Positions 8,122 to 38,488 of a DNA stretch of 64,000 nucleotides are shown here, piece by piece. Position 1 is the stretch's first letter. Each line of letters begins with the position of its first letter. The notes beneath the pieces were generated by a model, which did not search any database, had not been told where the DNA came from, and saw only the letters and a program-made list of their open reading frames with translations. Made by a program: the position numbers and the translations under genes. Origin of the DNA: an uncultured bacterium (GTDB lineage: Bacteria; Krumholzibacteriota; Krumholzibacteriia; LZORAL124-64-63); NCBI GenBank assembly GCA_963727525.1, contig CAVSGO010000006.1, forward strand, positions 314,182 through 378,181, given 5' to 3'.

Positions 8122-8817
8122 TCAGAACGTCACCACCGCCCCCGCCGCGTACGACCACATGGATGTGGCGCTCTCGGTGGGTGAGAAGACCGGGCGGTCG
8201 TCGACCAGCGCGATATCGCCCTCGGTGAGGTACTTCGCCTTGGCACCGTGCTGGTAGGTGGCGCCCAGGTCGAGGTACACGCCCGGCTTCTTCGCGCCGT
8301 GGTCACCGTCGCGCAGGCGGATGAGCAGGCCGGCGCCGACGCTGGAGAATGCGGCCGTGTCATCGTAGTTGGTCTTGTGGGCGATCTCGTCGTCGTGCCA
8401 CCAGCCGTCATCCTCGAGCTTGGACTCGGTCCACAGATAATTCAGGCCCAGACGCGCCTCGCCGTACGGTTGCACCGCGCCCGAGAGCGGCTGCACGCGG
8501 GCGAAGAGATAGCCGCCGGCCAGGTTGTTGGTGGTGGTGAGGTCGAAGCCGTCGACCAGCGGCAGTTCCTGGTGGGTGGACTCGCTGCCGTAGATCATGC
8601 CGTGCAGGCCGAGGCCGACCGTGATCCCCTGCCGCACGCGCACGCCGTAGTGAGCGTCGAGGCCGTAGCCCGCGCCGTCGATGGCGTCGCCGAAGGCGCC
8701 CTGAGGTTCGGCGACGATGAACTGCAGGCCGCCCTCCTGCTCGATGGCCACCGCGTGGATGGCCACGATGGCGACGACGGAGACGATCACGATCCTGGTG
8801 GCGATGGCGATTCTCAT
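8122..8817 (-). CDS. outer-membrane beta-barrel protein
   Basis: Signal peptide, amphipathic strands ('VQPYGEARLGLNY', 'VYLDLGATY'), terminal Phe. Confidence 0.75.
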   Translation of the reverse strand: MRIAIATRIVIVSVVAIVAIHAVAIEQEGGLQFIVAEPQGAFGDAIDGAGYGLDAHYGVRVRQGITVGLGLHGMIYGSESTHQELPLVDGFDLTTTNNLAGGYLFARVQPLSGAVQPYGEARLGLNYLWTESKLEDDGWWHDDEIAHKTNYDDTAAFSSVGAGLLIRLRDGDHGAKKPGVYLDLGATYQHGAKAKYLTEGDIALVDDRPVFSPTESATSMWSYAAGAVVTF

Positions 8818-9124
8818 GGCTGGTTTCCCTTGCTTGGAGGTGGGCCGCGTGCCGACGTGTGTCGCCCGCGCGGCTGTCGTGTCATGTCGCTCGCCATATC
8901 GCGAATATCGTGCCGCGGCCGGCTCCGATGCGGGGGCGTTGCTATCGTTTTTTTCGACAACTGGTTAGACGGGTCGCGAGGAATCGACGAGGAGGCCAAC
9001 CGGTGTGCTCTTCCGTCACACTGTATCTGGCCGTCCCGCAGACCGGCCCGATTCCCACGATCGGGTCGACGTTGGCCGTCACTGCGATCCGTGCTATATA
9101 GTTGCCCCTGGATCGGAGGTCCTG

Positions 9125-10108
9125 ATGGCGACACAGCGTGTTCTCGTGACCGGCGCGGCCGGTTACATCGGCTCGGTGGTCGTGCGGCAACTCCTGGCCG
9201 CGGGCCATCATGTCCGCGGTTTCGATGCCCTATTCTTCGGGGGCGACGCCCTGCTCGGCGTCTTCGGCGACCCGCATTTCGACTTCGTGCGGGGTGATCT
9301 GCGCGACGGGGCGGCGGTGCAGGAGGCGCTGCGCGGCGTGGATGCCGTGGTGCACCTGGCCGCCATCGTCGGCGACCCGGCCTGCGCCCGGGAGCCTGAG
9401 CTGGCCCGCGCCATCAATGGCGACGCTTCGCGCGAGCTGCTGGCGCGCTGTGTCGACACGCCCACGGTGAAGCGGTTCGTCTTCGCGTCCACGTGCAGCA
9501 ACTACGGGCGCGGGGCGCCGGGCGAGTTCGTACATGAAGAGTCGCCGCTCAACCCGGTGTCGCTCTATGCCGAGTTGAAGGTGGCCTTCGAGACGCAACT
9601 GTTCGGACTCGACGCGCGCTCCGATTTCGTGCCCACGGCCCTGCGCTTCGCCACGGTATACGGGCTGTCGCCGAGGCCACGTTTCGATCTCACGGTGAAC
9701 GAGTTCGTACGCGAGGTTGCGCTGGGACGCACGCTGAAGATCTTCGGCGAGCAGTTCTGGCGGCCCTACTGCCACGTGGACGATCTCGCGGGGGCGTGCG
9801 GGCTGGTGCTGGCCAGCGACGCCGCGAAGGTGAACCGTAACGTCTTCAACGTGGGTGACACCCGCGAGAACTATCAGAAGAAGATGATCGCCGATGCGAT
9901 CCTGGTCGTGGTGCCGGATGCCCGCATCGAGTACGTCAAGAAGGACGAGGATCCGCGCGACTACCGCGTCGACTTCACGCGCATCGCCGACACGCTGGGC
10001 TTCGCGATCACGAAGCGCGTGTCCGATGGTATCCGTGAAGTGCACGCCGCCCTGGCCGCCGGCATCTTCAGCGATCCCGACTCGCCGCGTTATCGCAACA
10101 TCGCGTGA
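9125..10108 (+). CDS. NAD-dependent nucleotide-sugar epimerase/dehydratase
   Basis: 'VTGAAGYIG', 'HLAAIVGDPAC', 'FASTCSNYG', 'YAELK', 'LRFATVYGLSPRPRFDL'; GGAGG RBS before the ATG at 9125. Confidence 0.92.
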   Translation: MATQRVLVTGAAGYIGSVVVRQLLAAGHHVRGFDALFFGGDALLGVFGDPHFDFVRGDLRDGAAVQEALRGVDAVVHLAAIVGDPACAREPELARAINGDASRELLARCVDTPTVKRFVFASTCSNYGRGAPGEFVHEESPLNPVSLYAELKVAFETQLFGLDARSDFVPTALRFATVYGLSPRPRFDLTVNEFVREVALGRTLKIFGEQFWRPYCHVDDLAGACGLVLASDAAKVNRNVFNVGDTRENYQKKMIADAILVVVPDARIEYVKKDEDPRDYRVDFTRIADTLGFAITKRVSDGIREVHAALAAGIFSDPDSPRYRNIA

Positions 10109-11061
10109 CGGGCGAGCGGGCGAGGGAGGCTCCCGTGCACGACATCCCCGTCGCCATCCTCGGCGTCACCGAGGGCAACGGCCACCCGTTCTCCTTCTCC
10201 GCCATCATCAACGGTTTCGACGAGGCGGGCATGGCCGCGTCGGGCTGGGCCGGCATCCACACCTACGTGCGCCGGCGCGACCCGTCGGAGTTCGGCTTTC
10301 CGCCGCTGCGCATCACGCACGCGTGGACGCAGGATCCCGAGGTGACGGCCAGGCTGCAGGCGGCCAGTCGCATCCCGCATGGCGTGAGCGACCCGGCCGA
10401 CCTGCTCGGCCAGGTGCAGGCCGTGATCATCGCCCGCGACGATCACGCCAACCACTGGACGATGGCGCAGCCGTTCCTCGAGGCGGGCATGAAGGTCTTC
10501 CTCGACAAGCCGCTCTCCCTGCAGCCCGACGAGCTGCGCCGGTTCCTGCCTTACCTCGAGCGCGGGCAGCTCATGTCGTGCTCGGGACTGCGCTTCGCGA
10601 AGGAACTCGACGAGCCGCGGGCCGAGCTGGCCAGCTATGGCAAGCTGGCGCTGGTACGTGGGGCGGTGCTCTTCGACTGGCCACGCTACGGCGTGCACAT
10701 GGTCGACGCCATCCTCGGCCTGCTGCCGTCGCGGCCGGTGGCCGTGTCGGCGCATCGCTGCGCGCACACGTCGGTGGCCATCGAGATGGACGACGACACT
10801 TTGGTGACGATCGACGCTCTCGAGCAGGTGCCGAAGATCTTCCGCGTCGACGTGATCGGGGAGAAGCGCATCACGTCGCACGAGATCGAGGACAATTTCA
10901 GCATGTTCCGCCGCGCCATGGGCGCCTTCGCGCGCATGGTGACGACGGGCGAACCGCAGATCCCCCCGCAGCGTACGCTCGACGTCATGCGTGTGCTCAT
11001 CGCGGGGCAGCGCGCGCGTGAAGAGCAAAGGAGAGTGACCGTCGATGAGCTCGGCATATGA
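10105..11061 (+). CDS. Gfo/Idh/MocA-family oxidoreductase (alternative start at 10135)
   Basis: 'GNGHPFSFSAIING', 'VFLDKPLS', 'YGVH' motifs; overlaps both neighbours. Confidence 0.8.
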   Translation: MTGERAREAPVHDIPVAILGVTEGNGHPFSFSAIINGFDEAGMAASGWAGIHTYVRRRDPSEFGFPPLRITHAWTQDPEVTARLQAASRIPHGVSDPADLLGQVQAVIIARDDHANHWTMAQPFLEAGMKVFLDKPLSLQPDELRRFLPYLERGQLMSCSGLRFAKELDEPRAELASYGKLALVRGAVLFDWPRYGVHMVDAILGLLPSRPVAVSAHRCAHTSVAIEMDDDTLVTIDALEQVPKIFRVDVIGEKRITSHEIEDNFSMFRRAMGAFARMVTTGEPQIPPQRTLDVMRVLIAGQRAREEQRRVTVDELGI

Positions 11062-11869
11062 TCACCTGTTCGACCTGGCCGGCAAGACGGCCATCGTCAC
11101 CGGCGGCGTGGGCATTCTCGGACGCGGGTTCTGCCGCGGCCTGGCGGAGTACGGCGCCCACGTGGTCGTGGCCGACGTGCGCGAGGAGGCCGCCGTCGCC
11201 TACGCGGCCGAGCTGAGCGAAGCCACGGGTCGCGACGCCCTGGGCGTGGGTTGCGACGTGGCCGACGAGGCGTCCGTGAAGGACCTCGTGGCGCGCGCGG
11301 TCGACCGCTTCGGCGGCGTGGACATCCTGCATAACAACGCCGCCTCCAAGTCGAAGAACCTCGAGGCGTTCTTCGCGCCGGTGGAGGACTACTCCCTCGA
11401 GGAGTGGCGTCACGTCATGTCCGTGAATCTGGACGGGCTCTTCCTGGTGGCCAAGGTCGTGGGCGGCCAGATGCGGGCGCAGGGCCGCGGCGGCAGCATC
11501 ATCCAGACGGCGTCGATCTATGGCGTGGTGGCCTCGGACAAGCGCATCTACGAGGGCTCCCAGTACATGGGGATGCAGATCAGCAATCCGCCGGTATACA
11601 GCGCCTCGAAGGCGGGCGTCGTGGGCCTGACGCGCTACCTCGCCGCCTACTGGGGCGACGTGGGCATTCGCGTGAACGCGCTCGTGCCCGGCGGCGTGGA
11701 GAGCGGCCAGAACGACACGTTCAAGCAGCGCTACGCCGCGCGCGTGCCCATGGGCCGCATGGCGCAGGCCGACGAGATGGTGGGCGCGTTGATCTACCTG
11801 GCGTCGCCGGCCTCGAGCTACGTGACCGGCCAGACGCTGATCGTGGACGGCGGCTTGACGTGCTGGTAG
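11045..11869 (+). CDS. SDR-family oxidoreductase (PtmA-like)
   Basis: 'VTGGVGILG', 'HNNA', 'SIYG', 'YSASK', 'YVTGQTLIVDGG'. Confidence 0.9.
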   Translation: MSSAYDHLFDLAGKTAIVTGGVGILGRGFCRGLAEYGAHVVVADVREEAAVAYAAELSEATGRDALGVGCDVADEASVKDLVARAVDRFGGVDILHNNAASKSKNLEAFFAPVEDYSLEEWRHVMSVNLDGLFLVAKVVGGQMRAQGRGGSIIQTASIYGVVASDKRIYEGSQYMGMQISNPPVYSASKAGVVGLTRYLAAYWGDVGIRVNALVPGGVESGQNDTFKQRYAARVPMGRMAQADEMVGALIYLASPASSYVTGQTLIVDGGLTCW

Positions 11870-26832: not shown

Positions 26833-29800
26833 CTACTTCACGAGAGCCATGCGGCCGACAAAGTCGTTCTGGCCGCTCCTGACGCGGTAGAAGTACACGC
26901 CCGCGGCAGCGGTGCGGCCGGCATTGTCCGTGCCGTTCCACTGCAGGCTGTGAGTGGCTGCCGGGAGATCCTCGTCCAGGAGCGTGCGGACGAGGCGGCC
27001 GGCCACGTCGTAGATCATGACACGGGTGCGAGCCGCGGCGGGCAGATCGAACCGGATCGTGGTCGACGGGTTGAACGGGTTGGGGAAGTTGGGGGACACG
27101 TGGAACACCGCCGGCGTCATGTCCTCCACCGGCGTAGCGCCGCAGCCCGCGCTCAGAGCACCGATAAGGTCGCAGCCGCCGCTGTTGGCCGGTGCGCACG
27201 GCGAATCGTTCGCGACGTGGAAGTTGCTGTTCGGCGCGTCGCAGAACAGGGGGTCGGCCGCGATGTTGCCGTTGCTGCCGACGGGATCGGCGATGCCGCT
27301 GACGTCATTCGAGGCGTTGCCGTAGAGGTCGCAGCAGCTCACGGTCGTGGCTCCGCCCAGAACGCCGATGCCGTTGCCGTACGAGGTGCCGCCAGTGTTG
27401 AAGGCGGTGATGGTGTTGCTCAGATCGAGTGAGCCGCCACTCAGGTAGATACCGCCCCCGCCCGAGGCCGTGGCGTCGTTGCCCGTGAAGGTGGAACTGG
27501 TCAGCGTCGCCGTGGTGCCGCCGTCCAGCGCGATGCCGCCGGCCCAGTACAGGGCCGCGTTCCCGGAGAAGACAGCGCCGCCGATCTGGGCGCTGGCGCA
27601 GTTCGTGAGCTGTATGCCAGCGCCGACGTTGGCGGTGTTGTCGTACGCGCCGCCGCCGTCGATGGTGACCGTCGCGTCGCTGGCGAACAGTCCGCCGCCG
27701 CCCATGAACGTGGCGTCGGCCGTCCGCGTGTTGCCCTCGAGGTCCACGTTGTTGAGGGTGAGAGTGCCGGCCAGCTGGCAGATGCCGGCGCCGTTGGTCT
27801 TGGCACTGTTGCCCGAGATCGTACCGCCATCGATGGTCAGGATGTTGGTGGTGGTGTTCATCGTCTTGGCGAGGATGCCGCCGCCGCGGTTCGTGCCGAG
27901 GTGCCCGGAAACGGTGATGTCGGTCATGTGCACGGTCGCGTCCACGAGGCAGATGCCGCCACCCTCGGGCGGATTGGCGGCGTTGCTGGTGTTGGGCGTG
28001 TTGTCGGAAACAGTGACGTTCGTGAACGTGGGCGAGCCCTTGTAGACGAAGATGCCACTGCCGTACACGGCCGAGTTGCCGTCGATCTGGACATTCTCGA
28101 GGACGGCAGTGGAGTTGTAGAGGGCGATGCCGCCGCCCATGCCGAGGTCCGCGCTCGACCCAACGCTGTTGGCCGTGATCCGCAAGTTGCGCAGGACGGG
28201 CGACTTCTGGTTGAGCATGATGCCGCCGCCGAAATAGCCGGTGTACGGCAGGTCGGAGAAGTACCGCCCCTCGCCACCCTGGCAGAGGAAGCCGTCGATC
28301 TCGGCCGTGTTGTCCACATCGCCGAGGAAATTCAGGGCCGGATGACCGTTGCCGCCCTGGACGACGGTCGGGTTGTTCAGGGGGTCGCGGGTGACGTAGC
28401 CGGGGTCATACGCGCCGAAGATCTTCAGTCCCTTGCCGAGCATCGTCGTCTCGGTCAGAATCTGGTTGGAGAGCACCTTGATCGTGTCGCCCGGTGCGGC
28501 TTCGACCATCGCGTCGCGCAGGAGGGCGAACTCACCCGGCACCTGCTGCACGTTGTCTCCGAGGGCCATGAGCAGGTTGATGCGGCCGTGGCCAAGATCG
28601 CCGATGAAGCCCGGATTCTCGCTGTCGATGTTGTCGCACGTGTTCTGCAGGAGCGTGACCACCTGGGACGACGTGAACTCGGGATGGGCCGACCAGATCA
28701 GCGCGCAGGCGCCGGCGGTGATCGGCGACGAGAAGCTCGTACCCTGCGTGCTCGTGTAGGTGTGGGTATCGCTGGACGGCACGTAGGCCGTGGTCCAGAT
28801 CGCGACGCCGGGCGCGCACACGTCGATCCACGAACCGTAGTCCGAGAAATCCGCCTTGCCGTCGTTGCTGTTGGTGGCGGCAACGGTGAGGATGCGGTCG
28901 TCGTTGAGGCCCTGCAGGTAGCCCGGCACGTCGGTGGCGTCGTTGCCGGCGGATACGCAGATGATGCAGCCGGCGCTCAGCGCCGCGTTGATCGCGCTGT
29001 CAAAGGCCGAACTGTAACCGGTGCCGTAGGAGAGGTTGATGATCTTGGCGCCGTTGGCCGCAGCGTAGGTGAAGCCCTGCGCCATGAAGCCGGCGTTGCT
29101 GTAGCCGTTGCCATCCGAGGAGAGCCAGCCGATACGCACGGCCATGATCTTGCAACCGGGCGCCATGGCCGCGATGCCGATGCCGTTGTCCGTGATCGGA
29201 GCGATGCAGCCCGAGACGAGCGTACCGTGGCCGCCGAAGTCCATCGGATCGTTGTCTGGCGGTCCCGGATCCTCGCCCGGATAGACCTGGCTCGGTGCGA
29301 GGTTGATGAAGTCCCAGCCGCGGATGTCGTCAACGAGGCCGTTGCTGTCGTCGTCGACCCCGGGCGTGCCGTAATACTCCGTCCAGTTCATCCAGATGGA
29401 GCCGCGAGCGTAGTCGGGGCCGGTGCCGCCGAGATCGGGATGACGATAGTCGACGCCGCTGTCGAGCACGGCCACGATCACGTTCGAGTCACCCAGCGAT
29501 TCGGCCCAGCCGCCGAGGGCGCGCGTGTCGCTGCCACCGAGGTCGGTGTTGCGGATGTACCATTGCGTGTCGACGAGGTCGTCGGGGTTGTACGCGGTGC
29601 CATCGGCGGGAAGCAGCAGGTTCGACTCGGCCACGTCGACCATCGAGAGCGCCTCGAGGTCGCGGATCACGGCCGCATTGCCGCCGGTGGCACCGTGGCG
29701 AATGATGAAGTGGCGCGCGAGATCGGCGCGCACCGCCGGATCCTTGAACGACTGGACCATGCCGCCGAAGAGTGGCTCGAGCGTGGCGACGTCGTCGCGA

Positions 29801-30000
29801 GACAGCACAGCGTCGAGGCTGGCGATCCCGGTGTGGGGCTTGCCGGCGACTGGCGTCACGGTGACGTCCTGGCCGACCTTGAACGACACGAGGACCTCGC
29901 CGGGAATCGGCTTGGGAGTGGCGGCGGATGCGGTCTGCAGACCGAAAACCGCCGCAGCCACCAGCAGGAGGGCAACGGATAGGCGAACGGGCTTGAACAT
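26833..30000 (-). CDS. S8 (subtilisin-like) peptidase with right-handed beta-helix region and C-terminal FlgD-Ig/T9SS-like domain
   Basis: Triad 'VAVLDSG', 'HGTLVSG', 'GTSFSSP'; oxyanion 'SAGN'; 'GN.A..GGG' repeats; 'PNPFNPSTTIRFDLP'. Confidence 0.92.
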   Translation of the reverse strand: MFKPVRLSVALLLVAAAVFGLQTASAATPKPIPGEVLVSFKVGQDVTVTPVAGKPHTGIASLDAVLSRDDVATLEPLFGGMVQSFKDPAVRADLARHFIIRHGATGGNAAVIRDLEALSMVDVAESNLLLPADGTAYNPDDLVDTQWYIRNTDLGGSDTRALGGWAESLGDSNVIVAVLDSGVDYRHPDLGGTGPDYARGSIWMNWTEYYGTPGVDDDSNGLVDDIRGWDFINLAPSQVYPGEDPGPPDNDPMDFGGHGTLVSGCIAPITDNGIGIAAMAPGCKIMAVRIGWLSSDGNGYSNAGFMAQGFTYAAANGAKIINLSYGTGYSSAFDSAINAALSAGCIICVSAGNDATDVPGYLQGLNDDRILTVAATNSNDGKADFSDYGSWIDVCAPGVAIWTTAYVPSSDTHTYTSTQGTSFSSPITAGACALIWSAHPEFTSSQVVTLLQNTCDNIDSENPGFIGDLGHGRINLLMALGDNVQQVPGEFALLRDAMVEAAPGDTIKVLSNQILTETTMLGKGLKIFGAYDPGYVTRDPLNNPTVVQGGNGHPALNFLGDVDNTAEIDGFLCQGGEGRYFSDLPYTGYFGGGIMLNQKSPVLRNLRITANSVGSSADLGMGGGIALYNSTAVLENVQIDGNSAVYGSGIFVYKGSPTFTNVTVSDNTPNTSNAANPPEGGGICLVDATVHMTDITVSGHLGTNRGGGILAKTMNTTTNILTIDGGTISGNSAKTNGAGICQLAGTLTLNNVDLEGNTRTADATFMGGGGLFASDATVTIDGGGAYDNTANVGAGIQLTNCASAQIGGAVFSGNAALYWAGGIALDGGTTATLTSSTFTGNDATASGGGGIYLSGGSLDLSNTITAFNTGGTSYGNGIGVLGGATTVSCCDLYGNASNDVSGIADPVGSNGNIAADPLFCDAPNSNFHVANDSPCAPANSGGCDLIGALSAGCGATPVEDMTPAVFHVSPNFPNPFNPSTTIRFDLPAAARTRVMIYDVAGRLVRTLLDEDLPAATHSLQWNGTDNAGRTAAAGVYFYRVRSGQNDFVGRMALVK

Positions 30001-30267
30001 CGTGGCAACCTCACGGCAGGGCATGACAACGTGACAAGCGCGCGGTCTAAAGAAAACCCGCACGCAGCGACTCCATCTCAAGAGATGTGATGATACCATA
30101 ATCCGGCCGCGCGCTCAACCCGACCACGATCCGGCCGCGCGCGTCTCGACGGGGACGACCCGGAAAATCCACGTAGGCCCCCTTGTTTCGCGTCTCGCTT
30201 CCGTCTAGAATGACCGCCATCATCCCAACGAAACTGAATTCCCGTGTCAAGGTCCGGAGGTGAGTCG

Positions 30268-31992
30268 ATGCGATCCCAGGGGCGAGTGTTCGTGCTCGCG
30301 GTGGTGTGCGCCGGCGTGCTGGCGCTGATGGCGCCGGGGACGGTCGGGGCCAAGCCCGTCAAGGATCCGGGCCTACCCGGCGGCGCGCCCCGCGCGTGGA
30401 CCCTGCGGGTTCCCCTGCCGGACGGACCGGCCCCGCGGACGGCGGCGATTTCCCACCTGGCCGACGCCTGGACCACGCTCTTCAGCGACGGCTTCGAGTC
30501 GGGCTTCCCGGGCCAGTGGACGGTGCTGAACCAGGGGGCGAGCAGTCAGCAGTGGGGCGTCTGGACCTGCTGGTCCGGCGATACGCCCACGCACAGCGCC
30601 GGGTGCGCGGCGGGGGGTGCGGCGGCGATCGGTTGCGGCGACGACTACCCCAATGATATGGAAGTATGGCTGGTCGCGGGACCGTTCGATCTTTCCGATA
30701 CCGAGTACACCGCAGCCGAACTCAACTACAACGTCCAGCTCGCCAGCGAGTCCGACTACGACGTATTCGCGGTCGGGGCCTCGACCAATGGCGTCAACTT
30801 CACCGTCGTCACGTATTCGGGCTCCCTGGCGCCCCAGGCGGCGACGCTGGACCTCGCCGCCGTCCCCACGCAGACCGAACCCGTGAATTTCCTGGGCGAG
30901 AGCCAGGTCTGGATCGCCTTCGTCTTCGCGTCCGACGGGTCTGTTGGCTTCCCCAACGGGGCGCAGATCGACGACGTCGTGCTGCGCGTGGCCAAGCCGG
31001 TCACGAACGAGGCGCCCCAGGTCACCGTGATGTCACCCAACGGTGGTGAGACGTGGCAGGCTGGTTCGACGCACGCGATCACCTATACGGCCACCGATGC
31101 CGACGGTGGTCCGTCGGCGCTGTCCCTGGCGTTCGCGTACTCGGTGAACGGGGGCTCCACCTGGACCGCTATCGCCGGCGACCAGACCAACACCGGCGCG
31201 TACACGTGGATCGTGCCCGCCGTCGCGAGCACCGACGCGCGCGTCCGTGCCACCGCCAGCGATGGACTTGCCGAGATCAGCGACATCTCCGACGCCAGCT
31301 TCACGATCAACCAGACCGCCCCGGGCGACAACACCCTCACACTGGGCGATGCCAGTGGCGAGGTGGGCAATTCGGTGGTGGTGCCCCTCGGGCTGACGAA
31401 CTCCGCGACCGTGAAGGGCGTGCAATGCGACATCATGTATGACGCGGCGGTGGCGGCGCTCGACGGCGTGACGGCGCTGGGGCGCGCGGCCGGTATGGCG
31501 GCGGCATCCCAGGTGATCGCCCCCGGGCAGGCGCGCGTGGTGCTCTACCACGATGGCGCCTCGACGGTCGCGGCCGGTACGGGGATCATCGCCAACCTCG
31601 TGTTCACGCTGATCGGTGCGGAGGCAGCGCAGACCGGTCTCGCGCCGGTGGACATCATCGTGTCCGATCCGGACGGGCAGGCGATCGCGTGCGACGGCGT
31701 GGGCGGCACGCTCACGGCGACCGCGGCGACTGGGCCGCCGGAGCTGGATATCGTGGCTCTGCGCAATCCTGGCCGCGTCCACACGCTGGAGATCATCGTC
31801 GCCGTCGCTGGGGGTTCGGGCGGTCTGCCTGTCGTGCTCGCCGACGAGATCCCGGTCACCATGACCTCGATCGGCGCCAATCGTTACGTGGGCACGTTCC
31901 ACTCCGACAGCGCGGCCGCGAGCGTCACGATCCGTGCCGTGGACACGAATGGCAACGGCCAGGGCTCGAACCAGATCACCGTAGCCTTCTAG
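30268..31992 (+). CDS. secreted multidomain protein: adhesin-like jelly-roll, Ig domain, cohesin-like domain, terminal Ig
   Basis: Signal peptide; 'FSDGFESG', 'IDDV'; 'P.VTV.SPNGGE.W'; cohesin-like 'LTLGDASG.VG..VVVP..L.N...VKGVQ.DI.YD...GTG.IA.L.F' at about 31330-31716. Confidence 0.75.
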   Translation: MRSQGRVFVLAVVCAGVLALMAPGTVGAKPVKDPGLPGGAPRAWTLRVPLPDGPAPRTAAISHLADAWTTLFSDGFESGFPGQWTVLNQGASSQQWGVWTCWSGDTPTHSAGCAAGGAAAIGCGDDYPNDMEVWLVAGPFDLSDTEYTAAELNYNVQLASESDYDVFAVGASTNGVNFTVVTYSGSLAPQAATLDLAAVPTQTEPVNFLGESQVWIAFVFASDGSVGFPNGAQIDDVVLRVAKPVTNEAPQVTVMSPNGGETWQAGSTHAITYTATDADGGPSALSLAFAYSVNGGSTWTAIAGDQTNTGAYTWIVPAVASTDARVRATASDGLAEISDISDASFTINQTAPGDNTLTLGDASGEVGNSVVVPLGLTNSATVKGVQCDIMYDAAVAALDGVTALGRAAGMAAASQVIAPGQARVVLYHDGASTVAAGTGIIANLVFTLIGAEAAQTGLAPVDIIVSDPDGQAIACDGVGGTLTATAATGPPELDIVALRNPGRVHTLEIIVAVAGGSGGLPVVLADEIPVTMTSIGANRYVGTFHSDSAAASVTIRAVDTNGNGQGSNQITVAF

Positions 31993-32005
31993 GGAGACGT
32001 CAACC

Positions 32006-32665
32006 ATGCGCGCAATGACGACGACGTTCGCGATCCTCGCCCTGGCCGGCCTCCTGGTCGGATGCGGGGGCGGCAGCGACGGTGGCACCAACCCGCCGAC
32101 CCCCACGGTGGCCGAGTTGACGGCGCAGGGCTGGACCGCGTTCGAGGCCCACGACTATGCCGGCGCCCAGGCCAAGTTCGAGGCGGCCATCGCCGAGGAC
32201 GGCGGCTACGCCGAGGCGCACCTCGGCCGTGGCTGGGCGCAGCTCGAGCGGGCGACGTCGGCCGCGTCGATGCAGGCGGCGGCGGCCACGTTCTCCACCG
32301 CGCTCGGGTACGGTGCCGACGTCGCGGCCACGCGAGCCGGACGCGCGGCGGCGTCGCTTGGCGCCGGCGGAGCTGCCTACGTGCAGGCCGTCGCCGACGC
32401 GCAGGTGGCGCGCGCGGCGAATCCGGCGTTCGCCTTTGGACACCGCACGTCGTTCAACGTGACCGATCTTCGTCTCATCGAGGCGTTCGCACAGGCCGGC
32501 CAGGGTGACTTCGCGCTGGCGCTGGCGGCCGCCGACGCCGTGGCCGATAGCGGCATCGTCGCCGGCGACCCCGACACCTGGCAGGTCGGCAACGAGACCC
32601 ACGCGACGTTCACCAGCGCGGTGATGGCGTTCCTCGAGTCCCTGTCCACCAGCCACGCCGGCTGA
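32006..32665 (+). CDS. TPR-repeat lipoprotein
   Basis: Lipobox 'LVGC'; TPR-like 'GWTAFEAHDYAGAQAKFEAAIAEDGGYAEAHLGRGWA'. Confidence 0.8.
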   Translation: MRAMTTTFAILALAGLLVGCGGGSDGGTNPPTPTVAELTAQGWTAFEAHDYAGAQAKFEAAIAEDGGYAEAHLGRGWAQLERATSAASMQAAAATFSTALGYGADVAATRAGRAAASLGAGGAAYVQAVADAQVARAANPAFAFGHRTSFNVTDLRLIEAFAQAGQGDFALALAAADAVADSGIVAGDPDTWQVGNETHATFTSAVMAFLESLSTSHAG

Positions 32666-32675
32666 GGAGGCGCGC

Positions 32676-33260
32676 ATGTCCGGACGAACTCTCACCATCC
32701 TGATCGCGGCCGCGCTCGGCGCACTCGCCGGCTGTCGTGGCGGCGATATGGAGCGACTCCTCGATCAGGACTCGCAGCAACGCCTCGCGGCCCTCGGCAA
32801 GGACGCGCGCGTGCTCATCTCGCTGCGCGGCGAGACGCAGACGCCACAGGTGCCGACGCTCGGCAAGGGCGACCGCGTGCTCGATCACGCCGGCCACTCC
32901 GTGCTCCTGGACGTCGACCGTGCCACGTTGCCCATGCTGGCCGATGCGGACGGCGTGCAGGATGGCACGATCTGGGGCGGCAGCGACGTGATCGGCCGCA
33001 TCGATCCGCCGCTGCGCGCCCAGCTCCTGGGCGCCCTCGATAAGCCGGCAGAGGTGGCGCCGCTGGCGATGGTCGGCCGCTTCGATGCGAGTGTATCCCA
33101 CGTGACCGATGCCATCGCGGCCTGCGGCGGCAAGGTGAACAGCGTCGCCGGCGGCATCGTCACCCTCGAGGCGCCCGCCCGGTCGGTTCTGCGTATCCTC
33201 GCGGTGCCGGGCCTGGTGGAGTTGAAGAAGCCGAACGTGCTGAACCCTCTGGGCAGCTAG
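32676..33260 (+). CDS. lipoprotein with two propeptide/I9-inhibitor-like repeats
   Basis: Lipobox 'LAGC'; the C-terminal half aligns by eye with the pro-domain of the downstream S8. Confidence 0.65.
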   Translation: MSGRTLTILIAAALGALAGCRGGDMERLLDQDSQQRLAALGKDARVLISLRGETQTPQVPTLGKGDRVLDHAGHSVLLDVDRATLPMLADADGVQDGTIWGGSDVIGRIDPPLRAQLLGALDKPAEVAPLAMVGRFDASVSHVTDAIAACGGKVNSVAGGIVTLEAPARSVLRILAVPGLVELKKPNVLNPLGS

Positions 33261-33273
33261 GGAGCATAGAATC

Positions 33274-36033
33274 ATGGCCATCAAGCGTCTCGTGCTCGTT
33301 TTGCTGGCTCTCGCGCTGGGCGCGGGCGCAGCCCAGGCGGCGACAGTCGATGTCCTCCTTCGCGGCTTGCAGGCCAAGGCGAACGCACCGGATGATCAGG
33401 GTCTCGTCCTCGATCGTATCGTGGCGACCGCCAAGGACGCGCGCACCGGCGAGATGCGCGTGGGCGTGATCCTGCGGCTTGACGGCACGCTGCCGGATCT
33501 GTCAGGCATCCGCGGGCTCGTGCTGGGCTCGGTCCATGGCACCATCGCCACCGCACGCTTGCCCCTGAGCGAACTGGACGCGCTGGCCGCCGTGCCGGGC
33601 ATCGTGAGCATCAGCGCGGCGCGCATGCTGCAGGCCTCGCTCGACATGGCCGTACCGGCGACGAACGTCGACGACGTGTGGAACGGCGCGCCCGCCTACA
33701 CCGGCACCGGCGTGCTCATCGGCATCATCGACAGCGGCATCGACTTCACGCACGACGATTTTCGCCACACCGACGGGACCACGCGCATCGTCTCGATGTG
33801 GGACGTGTACGGCACCGACGGCACGCCGCCCAGCGGGTTCAACGACGGCGCCGAGTATACCGCCACGCGTATCAACACCGCCCTCGGCGGCGGTGCCGGG
33901 GTCGCCGAGGCGGACATCGTGGGGCACGGCACCCACGTCAGCGGCATCGCGGCGGGCAATGGCCGCGCCTCGAGCGGCCAGTACAGGGGCGTGGCGTACG
34001 ACTCCGACATCCTCTTCGTGAAGCCCTACAACAACGGCTTTCCCGAGGACAAGACCATCGACGCCATGAACTACCTCGTGCAGAAGGCTCACGCGCTGGG
34101 CCAGCCCATCGCCATCAACATGTCCCTCGGTGGACATGTCGGCGCGCACGACGGCACGAGTGCCCAGGAACAGCTCATCGACGACCTGTCCGGCACCGGT
34201 GTGGTGTTCTGCGTCGCTGCGGGCAACGAGGGTGAGGACGATATCGCCGAGGCGGGCCCGGCGGCCAACCACGATTTCGTGCTGCGAATCGTCGACTACA
34301 GCCCCCAGGGCGGCACCGGCAACGACGCCTGCCTCGCCACGATCTGGTACGCGGGCTCGTCCAGCCCGAGCGTGTCACTCACGTTCCAGGGTGAGACGAC
34401 GTCTCCGGTCGCCTCCGGGACCCAGACCCCCCTGGACACGAGCGCCGGCTACATCGTCATCGACAATGCGAGCCAGGGCGTCGACCCCGGCAGCGGCGAC
34501 AAGGTCTGCTACATCCAGTGGGACGATCGCACGGGTACGCCGCCCAGCGCGGGCGACTGGACGATCACCATCAGCGGCGGCTCGGGTGACGCCGTCGCCT
34601 GGGTCGCCTACGCGACCATGACCGCCGGCTTCCCGAACAGCGACCAGTCGTACTCCCTCGGCATGCCCGCTTGCGCCGAGGCCGCGGTCTCGGTGGCGGC
34701 GTTCAAGACCCGCAACTCGTGGCCGGTGGTCGGCGGTTCGGCCGGCTATGGCAGCGGCAACCCGTGGGGCGACACGCCGCTGGGCGCGCGGGCTCCGTTC
34801 TCGTCGCTGGGGCCCACGCGCGATGGTCGCGAGAAGCCCGACCTCGCCGCGCCCGGCATGGCCATCGTCTCGTGCTACTCGCATCTGCAGAATCCACCCG
34901 CCGACAACCTCACCTTGCTGCCCGGCGGAAAGTACTACGCCACCCAGGGCACGAGCATGGCGACGCCGTTCACATGCGGTGTGGTGGGACTGATGCTGGA
35001 CAAGAATCCGTCGCTCACGGCGAGCGATGTGCGCACCATCCTGCGCGACACCGCCATCCAGGACGGCTACACCGGCTCCGGCTGGAACAACGGCTACGGC
35101 GCCGGCAAGATCGACGCGGCCGCGGCCGTGGCGGCCGTGAGTGCGCCGGTCGTCGCCACCGGCGATATCGACGGCGACGGCGGGCCCACGGTGCTCGACG
35201 TCGTCCTGCTGGTGAACAATATCGTCGATCCCACCGGCCATCCTCTGGACGGCGACCAGCGCGCGATGGCCGACGTGTTCCCCGCCGGCGGTGGCGATGG
35301 CAACCTGGACGTGTCCGACGTGGCGCGCATCGTGGCCTTCATTCTCGAAACGGCCACGCCGGGCGCGCCGCTCCCGGCACCCGCGCCCGCGCGCTTTGCC
35401 GTGGGCGAGCCCACGCAGGACGGCGCGACGTGGTGGGTGCCGGTGACGCTCGCCGGCGACGCGGTGGCGGGGTTCCAGTTCGCCCTCACTCTCGACGGCG
35501 CGCAGTGGCAGCCCGGCGACGTACGCGTGACCGGCGACCCCGATTGCCGCGCCGTGGCGAGCCGTGTCGGCGATCAGGTACTCGTGCTGCTGTATGCCCC
35601 GGACAACGCCATCGCGCCCGGCGGCGTGACGGTGGAGGTGCCCTTCGCCGCCGCGATGCAACCGGCGGGCGCGCCGCGCCTGAATGGGCTGCTCGTCGCC
35701 GACCCGCAGGGCTACGCGCGCGCGGTGACGGTGGGCACGGGCGTGGGCCTGCTGCCGGGCCTGCGCGCGGTGCAGGTGGCTCCCAACCCGGCACCGTCGG
35801 CCACCACCGTGCAGTTCCAGCTCGGGCGTGGCGATGCCGTGCAGGTGGCCGTCTACGATCTCAAGGGGCGCCGCGTCCGCACGCTCGATCTCGGCAATCT
35901 CGGCGAGGGCGTGCATGCCACGACCTGGGATGGCCGCGATGGCGCTGGCCACGACGTGTCCGCCGGCGTCTACCTGGTGCGCGTGTCCACGACGCAGCAG
36001 ACGGTGACGCGAAAAGTGGTGCTGACGCGCTGA
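33274..36033 (+). CDS. S8 peptidase with inserted domain (Csp-like), dockerin, cohesin-like domain and FlgD-Ig/T9SS-like C-terminus
   Basis: 'IGIIDSGID', 'HGTHVSGIAAG', 'AAGNEG', 'GTSMATP'; dockerin 'GDIDGDGGPTVLDVVLLVNNI...ADV...GDGNLDVSDVARIVAFIL' at 35161-35346; 'APNP...YDLKGRRVRTL...WDGRD'. Confidence 0.92.
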   Translation: MAIKRLVLVLLALALGAGAAQAATVDVLLRGLQAKANAPDDQGLVLDRIVATAKDARTGEMRVGVILRLDGTLPDLSGIRGLVLGSVHGTIATARLPLSELDALAAVPGIVSISAARMLQASLDMAVPATNVDDVWNGAPAYTGTGVLIGIIDSGIDFTHDDFRHTDGTTRIVSMWDVYGTDGTPPSGFNDGAEYTATRINTALGGGAGVAEADIVGHGTHVSGIAAGNGRASSGQYRGVAYDSDILFVKPYNNGFPEDKTIDAMNYLVQKAHALGQPIAINMSLGGHVGAHDGTSAQEQLIDDLSGTGVVFCVAAGNEGEDDIAEAGPAANHDFVLRIVDYSPQGGTGNDACLATIWYAGSSSPSVSLTFQGETTSPVASGTQTPLDTSAGYIVIDNASQGVDPGSGDKVCYIQWDDRTGTPPSAGDWTITISGGSGDAVAWVAYATMTAGFPNSDQSYSLGMPACAEAAVSVAAFKTRNSWPVVGGSAGYGSGNPWGDTPLGARAPFSSLGPTRDGREKPDLAAPGMAIVSCYSHLQNPPADNLTLLPGGKYYATQGTSMATPFTCGVVGLMLDKNPSLTASDVRTILRDTAIQDGYTGSGWNNGYGAGKIDAAAAVAAVSAPVVATGDIDGDGGPTVLDVVLLVNNIVDPTGHPLDGDQRAMADVFPAGGGDGNLDVSDVARIVAFILETATPGAPLPAPAPARFAVGEPTQDGATWWVPVTLAGDAVAGFQFALTLDGAQWQPGDVRVTGDPDCRAVASRVGDQVLVLLYAPDNAIAPGGVTVEVPFAAAMQPAGAPRLNGLLVADPQGYARAVTVGTGVGLLPGLRAVQVAPNPAPSATTVQFQLGRGDAVQVAVYDLKGRRVRTLDLGNLGEGVHATTWDGRDGAGHDVSAGVYLVRVSTTQQTVTRKVVLTR

Positions 36034-36048
36034 TCCCCGGCGCGCCCG

Positions 36049-37092
36049 CTAGTAGCTCGACGCGTCGAGCTTCACCTTGCCGCGGAAGATCCAGTAGATG
36101 CTGATGGTGTAGGCCAGCACGAAGGGGATGCCGATGATCGCGATCGTCAGCATGATCTTCAGCGTGCGTGCGGACGAGGCGGCGTTGTACACCGTCATGC
36201 TCGCGGACGGGTCGGCCGTATTGGGCACGATGTTGGGGTAGAGGCCCAGACCGATCAGCGCCATCAGGCCCGCGATCGTCAGCGACGACGACACGAAAGC
36301 GCGGATCTCGCGGCCGCGCGTGATCTCACGGGGGATGTTGGCCACGGCGAGCATCGTCAGCAGACCGAAGAACAGCAACGGCGGGGCGGCTCGGAAGTGC
36401 TCCGTCATGTGGGGTACGTAGATCAGCGTCACGATGGTGAGGCTCGCGTAGCAGATCACGAAGATGATGATGGTATTGTTCACCCAGCCGCGCACGCGGG
36501 CCTGCACCTCGCCCTCCGTCTTCATCACCAGGTAGATCGCGCCGTGCATCGTGAACAGGGCCACCGTGGTCACGCCCACGAGCAGCGCATACGGATTGAT
36601 CAGGGGCCAGAAACCGGCGGCGTACTCCCCGTCGGGCGTGAGCGGAATGCCGCGGATGATGTTGCCCAGGGCCACACCGGCGAGGAAGGCGATCAGCAGG
36701 CTCGACAGGCTGAAGCTCACGTCCCAAGCCTGGCGCCACCAGCCCATGGGCTGCTTGGAACGGAACTCGATGGCCACGGCGCGGAAGATGAGCACCACCA
36801 GCAGCACCATGAAGGCGATGTAGAACCCGCTGAAGACCGTGGCGTACACGGGCGGGAAAGCGGCGAAGAGCGCGCCGCCGCCGGTGATGAGCCAGACCTC
36901 GTTGCCGTCCCACACGGGCCCGATGGCATTGATCAGGACGCGCCGTTCGTGGTCCGTGCGCGTGAGCAGGTGCAGCGCGCCGACGCCCAGATCGAACCCG
37001 TCGAGAATGGCGTACCCGGTGAGCAGCACGCCGACGAGCAGATACCAGACGCTGTTGAGATCCCAGTTCAAGGTTGTCTGGGCGAAGTCCAT
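36049..37092 (-). CDS. cydB: cytochrome bd ubiquinol oxidase subunit II
   Basis: 'YAILDGFDLGVG', 'IGPVWDGNEVWL', 'FRAVAIEFRSK'. Confidence 0.97.
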   Translation of the reverse strand: MDFAQTTLNWDLNSVWYLLVGVLLTGYAILDGFDLGVGALHLLTRTDHERRVLINAIGPVWDGNEVWLITGGGALFAAFPPVYATVFSGFYIAFMVLLVVLIFRAVAIEFRSKQPMGWWRQAWDVSFSLSSLLIAFLAGVALGNIIRGIPLTPDGEYAAGFWPLINPYALLVGVTTVALFTMHGAIYLVMKTEGEVQARVRGWVNNTIIIFVICYASLTIVTLIYVPHMTEHFRAAPPLLFFGLLTMLAVANIPREITRGREIRAFVSSSLTIAGLMALIGLGLYPNIVPNTADPSASMTVYNAASSARTLKIMLTIAIIGIPFVLAYTISIYWIFRGKVKLDASSY

Positions 37093-37096
37093 CGGG

Positions 37097-38488
37097 TCAG
37101 TCCTTTCGACCCTGCGTGGCGCGCGCCAGGCCGCTCCTGAGGTGGCCGTAGGTGGGCTGGTCGTCGGGTGTGGCGTCGGGTCCGTGCTGGATCTTGTGGT
37201 TCAGCAGGAAGATGAAGAGCGCGAAGAGCAGCGCGTAGACCAGGGTGAAGAGGACGAGCGAGAAGAGGGTCTGCCCTGCCGTCACCACGGGCGACACGGC
37301 GTCGGCCGTGCGCAGCAGTCCGTAGACGATCCAGGGCTGGCGGCCCACCTCGGCCGACATCCAGCCGAGCTGATTGCCAAGCTGCGGCAGCATCACCGAG
37401 AGCACGAAGAGCCACAGCAGCCAGCGATGGCGGAAGAGGGCGCCGCGCCACCAGAGCAGCGTGCCGAGCACACCCAGGCCGATGAGGGCCATGCCCACCA
37501 TGATCATCAGGTGGTAGCTCTGGAAGACGACGTTGATCGGGGGGCGCTCGTCGGCCGCGAAGCTGGTCAGACCCCGGATCGGCGCCTGCGTGTCGCCATG
37601 GATGAGCCAGCTCAACATGCCCGGCAGCTTGATGCCCCACTTCACCGTCTGCGTGGTTTCGTCCACCCAGCCCAGGAGGTAAAGATCGGCCGGGGCCGAA
37701 GCCGGGTAGTGAGCCTCGAATGCCGCCAGCTTGGCCGGTTGCGTCGCCGCGATGCCTTTGCCGCTCTCGTGGCCGGTGAGGAGCTGGGCGAACGAGAAGA
37801 CGAGCAGCAGCACGAGCCCGATGCGTAGCGAGCCGCGGGCGAATTCCTCGTGGCGCTTCTTCAGCAGGTACCACGCGCTCACGCTCAGTACCAGGGTGGC
37901 GCCGGTGAGCACGGCGGCGCTCAGCGTGTGGGTGAGGCGGTCGACCGTGGACGGATTGAAGACCATGGCCCAGAAATCGGTGATCTCGGCGCGCGGGCCG
38001 GTCATCGACTCCACGATGTGGAAGCCCGCCGGCGTCTGCTGCCACGAGTTGGCGATGATGATCCACAGGGCGCTGAAGATGGAGCCCAGGCTCACCATGC
38101 AGGTGGCGAAGAAGTGCATGCGCTTGCCCACGCGATCCCAGCCGAAGACGAGGATGGCCAGGAAGCCGGATTCCAGGAAGAAGGCGAAGATGCCCTCGGC
38201 CGCGAGCGCGCTGCCGAACACGTCGCCCACGAAGCGCGAGTACGTGGCCCAGTTGGTGCCGAACTCGAATTCCATGACGATGCCCGTGGCCACGCCCATG
38301 GCGAAGGTGAGGGCGAAGATCTTGATCCAGAAGCGCGTCATGGTCTCGAAGATCTTGCGGCCGGTCTTCAGGTACAGGCCCTCCATGATCACCAGGGCCA
38401 CGCCCAGACCGATGGACAGGGGCGGGTACAGGTAGTGGAAGCAGATGGTGAAGGCGAACTGGAGGCGCGAGAGGAACACGACGTCCAT
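37097..38488 (-). CDS. cydA: cytochrome bd ubiquinol oxidase subunit I
   Basis: 'SRLQFA...FH', 'GVATGIVMEFEFGTNW', 'QPAKLAAFE', 'EVGRQPW'. Confidence 0.97.
   Translation of the reverse strand: MDVVFLSRLQFAFTICFHYLYPPLSIGLGVALVIMEGLYLKTGRKIFETMTRFWIKIFALTFAMGVATGIVMEFEFGTNWATYSRFVGDVFGSALAAEGIFAFFLESGFLAILVFGWDRVGKRMHFFATCMVSLGSIFSALWIIIANSWQQTPAGFHIVESMTGPRAEITDFWAMVFNPSTVDRLTHTLSAAVLTGATLVLSVSAWYLLKKRHEEFARGSLRIGLVLLLVFSFAQLLTGHESGKGIAATQPAKLAAFEAHYPASAPADLYLLGWVDETTQTVKWGIKLPGMLSWLIHGDTQAPIRGLTSFAADERPPINVVFQSYHLMIMVGMALIGLGVLGTLLWWRGALFRHRWLLWLFVLSVMLPQLGNQLGWMSAEVGRQPWIVYGLLRTADAVSPVVTAGQTLFSLVLFTLVYALLFALFIFLLNHKIQHGPDATPDDQPTYGHLRSGLARATQGRKD

Follow-up and report, generated by a model that had tools for sequence, protein, structure and literature searches.

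The closest published case to the locus described here is a cellulosome-like cohesin-dockerin system of the Cloacimonadota, which the part of its description drawn on here deduces from 'Ca. Stygibacter' genomes and links to the type IX secretion system (T9SS); dockerin-bearing S8 peptidases with T9SS-tailed cohesin scaffolds have thus already been proposed in that phylum (PMC8542988). Another relevant system is dentilisin of Treponema denticola, in which, according to the portion of the account used here, one operon (prcB-prcA-prtP) encodes an S8 protease together with two lipoproteins that are needed for, and anchor, the outer-membrane complex (PMC8167434). The SUB1 inhibitor of Plasmodium, as presented in the sections of its report consulted, is a stand-alone propeptide-like inhibitor of a subtilase (PMC6993865). 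The role of non-cellulosomal cohesin-dockerin pairs is poorly understood, as is the way in which T9SS cargo is retained on the cell outside Bacteroidota, apart from sortase-mediated lipid attachment. The locus in question is a four-gene cassette, P1 to P4, at positions 30268-36033 of a 64,000-nucleotide stretch of DNA (the window) from an uncultured bacterium of the Krumholzibacteriia (assembly GCA_963727525.1, contig CAVSGO010000006.1, positions 314,182 to 378,181 of the forward strand).

P4, the central product of this conserved Krumholzibacteriia cassette, is a Csp-like subtilase that is predicted to be secreted by T9SS, to join the separate cohesin protein P1 by cohesin-dockerin pairing, and to be held or silenced by the lipoprotein P3. 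We put the probability of this reading at roughly 0.5. It starts from the domain identities, the lipoboxes of P2 and P3, the intact catalytic residues and T9SS tail of P4, the T9SS machinery of the genome, P3's prodomain fold, and the joint conservation of the four genes. In the proposed mechanism, P4 would be exported across the inner membrane through Sec and across the outer membrane through T9SS. Its dockerin would bind the P1 cohesin, and perhaps that of another P4 molecule as well, giving small chains. P3, serving as a prodomain in trans, would bind the catalytic domain and could act as a membrane-anchored inhibitor, chaperone, or holder, and P2 may anchor P1 through the C-terminal domain of P1 (P1ct). 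The four genes are as follows.

30268-31992 (+): P1, a 574-aa secreted cohesin protein; open reading frame (ORF) with ribosome-binding site (RBS)
32006-32665 (+): P2, a 219-aa lipoprotein (Cys20) with tetratricopeptide repeat (TPR) motif(s) at about residues 37-94
32676-33260 (+): P3, a 194-aa lipoprotein (Cys20) with two beta-alpha-beta-beta-alpha-beta domains
33274-36033 (+): P4, a 919-aa pre-pro S8 subtilase

The original prediction described four co-oriented genes 10-13 bp apart, each with an RBS, and the ORF coordinates and RBS motifs agree with it. All four ORFs lie on the forward strand with intergenic gaps of 13, 10, and 13 bp (P1/P2, P2/P3, and P3/P4), and the purine-rich motifs GGAGG, GGAGA, AGGAGG, and GGAG stand 5-10 nt upstream of the P1, P2, P3, and P4 ATGs, respectively. 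Every feature named in that prediction was found at the position it had been given. A convergent gene lies 15 bp beyond the end of P4.

About 14 genomes, all from a single Krumholzibacteriia family, share the cassette at 31-61% identity, in flanks that are unrelated. A profile of P3 finds its family in 13 of the 90 other genomes of the window's family (one a weak partial match) and in none of 117 genomes from other families of the class. Around 12 P3 homologs, the order P1-P2-P3-P4 is kept in 11 loci at 31-61% identity, the exception being genome G164; two of the 11 are cut by contig ends, and in one of them P3 was detected by the profile alone. In a second scan, the P4 alignment was searched against one genome per species, and 80 of 169 loci were kept, the 14 closest of which have a P4 of 47-62% identity. 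Ten of these 14 contain all six domain models (P1 cohesin, P1ct, P2, P3, P4 dockerin, and P4 cohesin). The other four are two contig fragments, one locus without P3 (L054), and one without P2 and P1ct (L051). Nine of the 14 lie on the same contigs as the P3-centered loci. When the flanks of the orthologous loci are compared, they have nothing in common beyond the four genes. The gene-order comparison that had been proposed as a check is therefore favorable in both scans.

None of the seven remote Csp-like T9SS proteases scanned has a dockerin or a P1-like neighbor, and the 66 remoter loci contain no match to the P1 cohesin, P3, or the P4 cohesin. Six Bacteroidales loci among these 66 have weak dockerin matches.

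P4 is an S8 protease composed of an N-terminal signal peptide and prodomain, a central catalytic domain, and a C-terminal region with three further modules. Its parts are listed below.

Residues about 1-22 of P4 (+): signal peptide
Residues about 23-125 of P4 (+): prodomain
Residues 126-627 of P4 (+): Csp-like catalytic domain with a beta-sandwich insert
35161-35346 (+), residues 630-691 of P4: dockerin with two F-hand repeats, Dockerin_1 (PF00404) below the cut-off
35383-35745 (+), residues 704-824 of P4: cohesin-fold module, by VIA, BLASTP, hhalign, and Atlas
35776-36030 (+), residues 835-919 of P4: T9SS type A C-terminal sorting domain, by TIGR04183 and FlgD_ig

The catalytic domain matches Peptidase_S8 (PF00082) at 147 bits, in line with the protease that had been predicted. 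Residues D153, H218, N318, and S561 are fully or almost fully conserved across 10 sequences; we take D153, H218, and S561 to be the Asp-His-Ser triad and N318 to be the oxyanion Asn. The nearest solved relatives by sequence are the clostridial Csp germination proteases (E 1.9e-32) and Tk-SP, and CspB aligns to residues 126-627 at Z 17.9. The AF2 model of the whole protein is poor, with a mean predicted local distance difference test score (pLDDT) of 57.4; neither the dockerin nor a large part of the catalytic domain is modeled reliably.

The segment originally called a FlgD-type tail is present, and its identity is that of a type A T9SS sorting domain. It scores 44.4 bits against TIGR04183 (cut-off 23) and 50.8 bits against FlgD_ig (cut-off 27), and its fold matches the C-terminal domains of PorU (Z 12.8) and PorZ (Z 10.3). 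The genome encodes T9SS machinery, including SprA, which sums to 480 bits, and PorU at 436.5 bits (cut-off 420). A type A sorting domain stands at the C-terminus of at least 150 ORFs, so the T9SS route dominates the exported proteome, and among these tails that of P4 scores best.

The dockerin of P4 lies between the catalytic domain and the cohesin-fold module. Each Ca loop of a dockerin F-hand carries Asp or Asn at positions 1, 3, 5, and 12 and is followed by a helix. The motif is kept in all 17 aligned P4 sequences, and in every one of them repeat 1 (DIDGDGGPTVLD) shows the canonical arrangement of Ca ligands. At the aligned position in eight orthologs scanned, Dockerin_1 is above the cut-off in four (23.8-28.6 bits), below it in one, and not listed in three.

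P1 is a secreted protein with a single cohesin and comprises the parts below.

Residues 1-28 of P1 (+): signal-peptide-like N-terminus
Residues about 60-245 of P1 (+): variable N-terminal domain
31015-31248 (+), residues 250-327 of P1: Ig-like domain
31333-31737 (+), residues 356-490 of P1: cohesin module, Pfam PF00963
31738-31989 (+), residues 491-574 of P1: C-terminal domain (P1ct), 84 residues with a conserved NPGR motif and no known family

A cohesin-like module had been placed at about 31330-31716, and PF00963 indeed matches residues 356-455 (nt 31333-31632) at 39.1 bits against a cut-off of 24.1. The same model is above the cut-off in all four P1 orthologs scanned (30.1-35.0 bits). By sequence, all five matches of the module in the PDB are cohesins, each of them weak (E 0.0087-0.28). 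Matches of P1 to Kre9_KNH and Big_7 are both below the cut-off. The N-terminal parts are absent in 5 of the 12 orthologous loci, where P1 consists of the cohesin and P1ct only, and one ortholog (L049, 3252-4640) has two tandem cohesin modules. The Ig-like domain in the middle of P1 recurs very commonly in large secreted proteins, with matches in 38 of the 41 genomes of the class that were searched; with so widespread a repeat, most P1 matches in those genomes are non-orthologs. The Pfam scan of P1 gave no carbohydrate-binding module (CBM) and no glycoside hydrolase. Neither a multi-cohesin scaffoldin with a CBM nor a dockerin-bearing glycoside hydrolase, by which a cellulosome is recognized, is present in the cassette.

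P1ct is kept in all 13 aligned P1 sequences. It was considered as a general sorting tail and rejected because, in a genome-wide search, its sole match is itself.

P3 is a lipoprotein whose C-terminal half resembles the prodomain of a subtilase. Its lipobox reads L-A-G-C20, and all 12 aligned family members keep C20, which bears out the second lipoprotein of the original prediction; here and in P2, the lipobox is assigned by the general rule for such motifs. By sequence, P3 has no Pfam or NCBIfam match, a profile search of the PDB returned only chance-level rows, and the Atlas leads reach only 0.83-0.84. The AF2 model is confident, with a pLDDT of 86.5 and a predicted template modeling score (pTM) of 0.79, and it adds to the original prediction the following domain.

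32979-33245 (+), residues 102-190 of P3: C-terminal domain with a subtilase-prodomain (I9-like) fold, by VIA-align, Foldseek, and hhalign

In a VIA-align comparison of residues 102-190 of the model with 48,161 chains, independent of Foldseek, ranks 1-6 are all subtilase prodomains: ProN-Tk-SP (Z 10.3), the CspB prodomain (Z 8.8, 87 of 92 residues aligned), pro-subtilisin E (Z 8.1), the BPN' prodomain (Z 7.7), the Tk-SP propeptide (Z 7.1), and PAM protease (Z 6.9). Lower-ranked matches include the PCSK9 and cucumisin prodomains and POIA1 (Z 5.6). The best Foldseek match is likewise the CspB prodomain (4i0w_A), and the C-terminal half of P3 aligns with the prodomain of P4 itself at an hhalign probability of 60.6% (E 8.4e-5). 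Among 1.84 billion proteins, the P3 family comprises 77 cluster representatives at E <=0.001; nearly all are 170-220 aa long and none is protease-sized. In one locus (L044, G116:C52, about 8160-11694), the P3 match lies in a 1089-aa open frame running into P4, which is either a fusion or a missing stop in a GC-rich frame.

The lipoproteins had been proposed to tether or regulate the complex. With a prodomain-like P3, this proposal can be sharpened: judging from its modeled fold, P3 is probably an inhibitor, chaperone, or membrane holder of the protease.

P2 is a lipoprotein with one or two TPR motifs, and the remainder is helical by composition. Its lipobox is L-V-G-C20, with G19 and C20 unchanged in all 10 aligned sequences. 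The TPR matches in Pfam are below the cut-off (20.3 against 32.7 bits), though a profile of the 10 sequences matches consensus TPR proteins in the PDB (E 1.4e-9); with the invariant lipobox Cys, this upholds the TPR lipoprotein originally described. P2-like matches beside remote proteases (L087, L116, L122, and L124) span only about 70 TPR residues.

After the Cys, P2 orthologs carry small residues and then one to three Asp or Glu (for example SSGDDD), the window P2 carries GGGSDGG, and P3 carries Lys or Arg followed by Asp. Lipoprotein export signals of Bacteroidota are given, in the part of the source used here, as C-X-K-(D/E)2 and SDDDD (PMC5080379). The residues of P2 and P3 resemble these signals weakly at best, so no membrane orientation is deduced.

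A variant locus bears on the function of P2. L051 (5410-10437) contains P3 and P4 followed downstream by a 557-aa cohesin protein (40.6 bits), and it lacks P2 and P1ct. The cohesin protein ends in a T9SS-like tail with a FlgD_ig score of 26.1 bits, just under the cut-off of 27. A cohesin protein with such a tail, together with the joint absence of P2 and P1ct, agrees with a cohesin partner outside the cell and with a connection of P2 to P1ct. It is because of this one observation that P2 is suggested to anchor P1.

Several findings weigh against the proposed assembly, beginning with the dockerin. The two-repeat Ca-binding dockerin of the original prediction lies exactly where it was placed, and its first repeat is canonical; however, the window protein falls under the Pfam cut-off (Dockerin_1, 19.4 against 22.9 bits) and is matched only when the segment is scanned alone. 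The loop of the atypical repeat 2 has a four-residue insertion in the window P4 and is canonical in three orthologs. The dockerin is modeled at a pLDDT below 50, with helices predicted at residues 640-651, 660-666, and 680-690. A sub-threshold dockerin would also suit a reading in which the cohesin and dockerin are unpaired modules, serving as spacers or in substrate binding, and the genes are linked only because P2 and P3 help P4 to mature. In a 2009 work, Peer et al. reportedly found many non-cellulosomal cohesin and dockerin modules to have no known partner. However, dockerin and cohesin co-occur in P4 with a P1 neighbor and are both absent from all seven remote relatives scanned, and the Ca ligands of repeat 1 are preserved throughout the aligned sequences. 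We regard the lack of any pairing as very unlikely. The fold and co-conservation on which the original prediction depended were both found, in the form of the cohesin fold and its Pfam match, dockerins in orthologs, and conserved loci.

P4 also carries a cohesin fold of its own according to structural comparison of its model, which gives substance to a further cohesin-like segment noted in the original prediction. Residues 704-824 have an AF2 pLDDT of 65-86 within the otherwise poor model. Their best structural match by VIA is 2xdh, a non-cellulosomal cohesin of A. fulgidus (Z 12.3, 115 of 138 residues, 22% identity, root-mean-square deviation 2.7 A), followed by 2jh2 (Z 12.0), 6kgf (Z 12.0), 4fl4 (Z 11.4), and type II cohesins at about Z 10. 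The three best cohesin matches align 115-117 residues at 2.7-2.8 A. The top three Atlas matches are cohesin clusters (0.86-0.88), and comparison with the P1 cohesin is weak but consistent (BLASTP E 0.006, hhalign 69.5%). The isolated segment has no match in Pfam at E up to 10. Searches with the cohesin (PF00963) and dockerin (PF00404) models, which had been suggested as a check, were thus mixed: the P1 cohesin is above the cut-off, whereas the P4 module has no match and the window dockerin remains below. The module is retained in all 17 aligned orthologs.

With this cohesin directly after the dockerin, the dockerin has two candidate sockets in the cassette. The P4 module begins about 12 residues past the dockerin and is an equally good or better-placed candidate than that of P1, which is a second point against the proposed pairing. 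The dockerin of P4 may instead pair with P4's own cohesin, either as an intramolecular clasp or in head-to-tail chains, in which case the P1 cohesin would serve another dockerin or act as a cap. Divergence among 12 loci does not separate the two sockets, and this also counts against a preference for P1: the dockerin distances correlate with those of the P1 and P4 cohesins at r 0.78 and 0.80, respectively, and at partial r 0.69 and 0.65 given the catalytic domain. The values are lower for P2 (r 0.53, partial 0.17) and for the sorting tail (r 0.63, partial 0.35), a difference that speaks for cohesin-dockerin pairing. Because the loci are related, these correlations are weak evidence. An unrelated 410-aa metagenome protein (P0013) has the same dockerin-then-cohesin tandem, with Dockerin_1 at 30.3 bits and Cohesin at 20.6 bits (below cut-off), and this recurrence favors pairing within P4.

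Cohesins and dockerins elsewhere in the genome could also be the true partners of the cassette's modules. The genome-wide scan gave five cohesin matches and one dockerin above the cut-off. The dockerin is an essentially stand-alone, canonical module in a small secreted protein (26.3 bits; G000:C4, L021 1483-1860, minus strand), and it could be the partner of P1 if P4 pairs with itself. A 318-aa secreted protein (G000:C2, L017 940-1896, minus strand) has two cohesins above the cut-off (32.1 and 25.5 bits), no lipobox, and no sorting tail. About 5 kb from it, a 308-aa T9SS-tailed ORF has a weak cohesin match (C2:95422-96120). Another candidate surface scaffold is a 1582-aa ORF (G000:C1:6529-8136) in which a cohesin (26.2 bits) is combined with a T9SS tail. 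The cassette itself occurs in a single copy and is private, as its modules are found nowhere else in the genome.

Pairing within P4 leaves unaccounted for the separate cohesin protein that stands beside the protease in every complete locus, as well as the two-cohesin P1 of L049, and the P4 module has diverged so far that the Pfam cohesin model misses it. We therefore consider it a possible but doubtful alternative to the joining of P4 to P1. The two sockets could also be used together in a self-contained unit. P4 molecules would daisy-chain through their own dockerins and cohesins, P1 would cap and anchor the chain and be held by P2 through P1ct, and the lipid-anchored P3 would silence each protease at the membrane until release. 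This fuller scheme is unlikely.

The location of P1 presents a further difficulty. In this genome, P1 has neither a T9SS tail nor a lipobox, and it has no evident route to a surface-located P4. Since P1 has a Sec signal only and P1ct is no known sorting tail, P1, P2, and P3 might instead form a transient periplasmic complex that holds or silences pro-P4 until T9SS takes over, so that the protease alone reaches the surface. The lipoproteins P2 and P3, neither with an assigned orientation, and the prodomain-like fold of P3, typical of inhibitors and folding chaperones, are compatible with such a complex. The near-threshold T9SS-like tail of the L051 cohesin protein argues for a partner outside the cell, and Ca-dependent dockerins are known from extracellular systems. 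A purely periplasmic complex therefore appears improbable.

The part assigned to P3 also has points against it. A prodomain fold alone is no proof of inhibition, and the match is confined to the C-terminal half of the protein. An otherwise complete locus (L054) has no P3, which makes P3 dispensable in one lineage. The G164 copy stands at a contig start with an internal stop and has neither P1 nor P2 beside it.

A second S8 protease gene is a neighbor of the cassette and shares its upstream intergenic region.

26833-30099 (-): divergent S8 protease, 1088 aa; Peptidase_S8 157 bits, TIGR04183 28.5 bits; neighbor outside the unit

This protein contains a long Gly/Asn-rich repeat region (weak DUF5123 match) and a T9SS tail, and its likely true start is a Met at about 30000, ahead of the signal peptide. 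The original prediction correctly reported a second, divergently transcribed S8 gene, but the gene is not conserved beside the cassette and so lies outside the unit. It was considered as a member of the system and rejected; only its tail matches anything in the relatives' loci. A promoter and terminator scan gave one promoter-like and one terminator-like site, both at chance level on the minus strand near the divergent gene, and none useful for the operon. For positions 30200-36040, no sequencing runs are listed. Directly downstream of P4, two convergent membrane-protein genes (36049-38488, minus strand) resemble cytochrome bd oxidase subunits by eye.

The cassette has two notable features, namely a protease bearing both plug (dockerin) and socket (cohesin), and a prodomain-fold lipoprotein. 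With four genes, one dockerin, and two cohesins, it offers clean, testable pairs: each cohesin with the dockerin, P3 with the P4 catalytic domain, and P2 with P1ct. If P3 acts as proposed, a prodomain-fold lipoprotein would represent a novel type of bacterial protease control in trans. If the self-contained daisy-chain unit exists, it would be an undescribed, protein-only means of displaying and gating T9SS cargo.

Of the proteins with solved structures, the Csp proteases (CspB, CspA, and CspC; 4i0w, 9pr8, and 6mw4) come closest to the P4 catalytic domain, its beta-sandwich insert included. The CspB prodomain is the fold match of both P3 and the prodomain region of P4 itself. However, P4 scores only 134.7 bits against the Csp NCBIfam equivalogs, far under the cut-off of 1250, and Csp proteins, which act inside spores, carry neither a dockerin nor a cohesin nor a T9SS tail. 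POIA1 (1v5i), which is among the fold matches of P3, is a stand-alone prodomain-fold protein that acts on a subtilase. Unlike POIA1 and the SUB1 inhibitor, P3 is a lipoprotein, carries an additional N-terminal domain, and shares an operon with its presumed target. A limited literature search found no description of a lipoprotein with a subtilase-prodomain fold.

The A. fulgidus cohesin 2xdh, the best structural match of the P4 module, likewise stands outside cellulose-degrading systems; unlike the P4 module, it is archaeal and linked neither to a protease nor to T9SS. A. fulgidus proteins combine both cohesin and dockerin modules. The likeness of dentilisin to the cassette is one of working mode only, and it supports the proposed assembly by analogy as far as the cited portion of the account goes (PMC8167434). 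P4 scores 65.3 bits against dentilisin PrtP (NF033595), below the cut-off of 300, and no sequence relation is shown. In that same portion, dentilisin has no cohesin or dockerin, and PrtP itself is acylated (PMC8167434).

Like the cassette, the Cloacimonadota system, in the part of its description used here, combines a dockerin-bearing S8 peptidase (there S8/S53) with a non-catalytic cohesin protein and T9SS tails, belongs to the FCB group, and is deduced from genomes only (PMC8542988). There, the tail is on a 3,755-aa scaffoldin with many cohesins and CBMs, onto which several enzyme classes dock (PMC8542988). Unlike that system as so described, the cassette has one private, tail-less cohesin protein, a sorting tail on the protease, a cohesin within the protease itself, and two lipoproteins. 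It is a real, conserved, and lineage-restricted cassette, the assembly and location of whose products we infer, and it extends the non-cellulosomal cohesin-dockerin theme on T9SS cargo.

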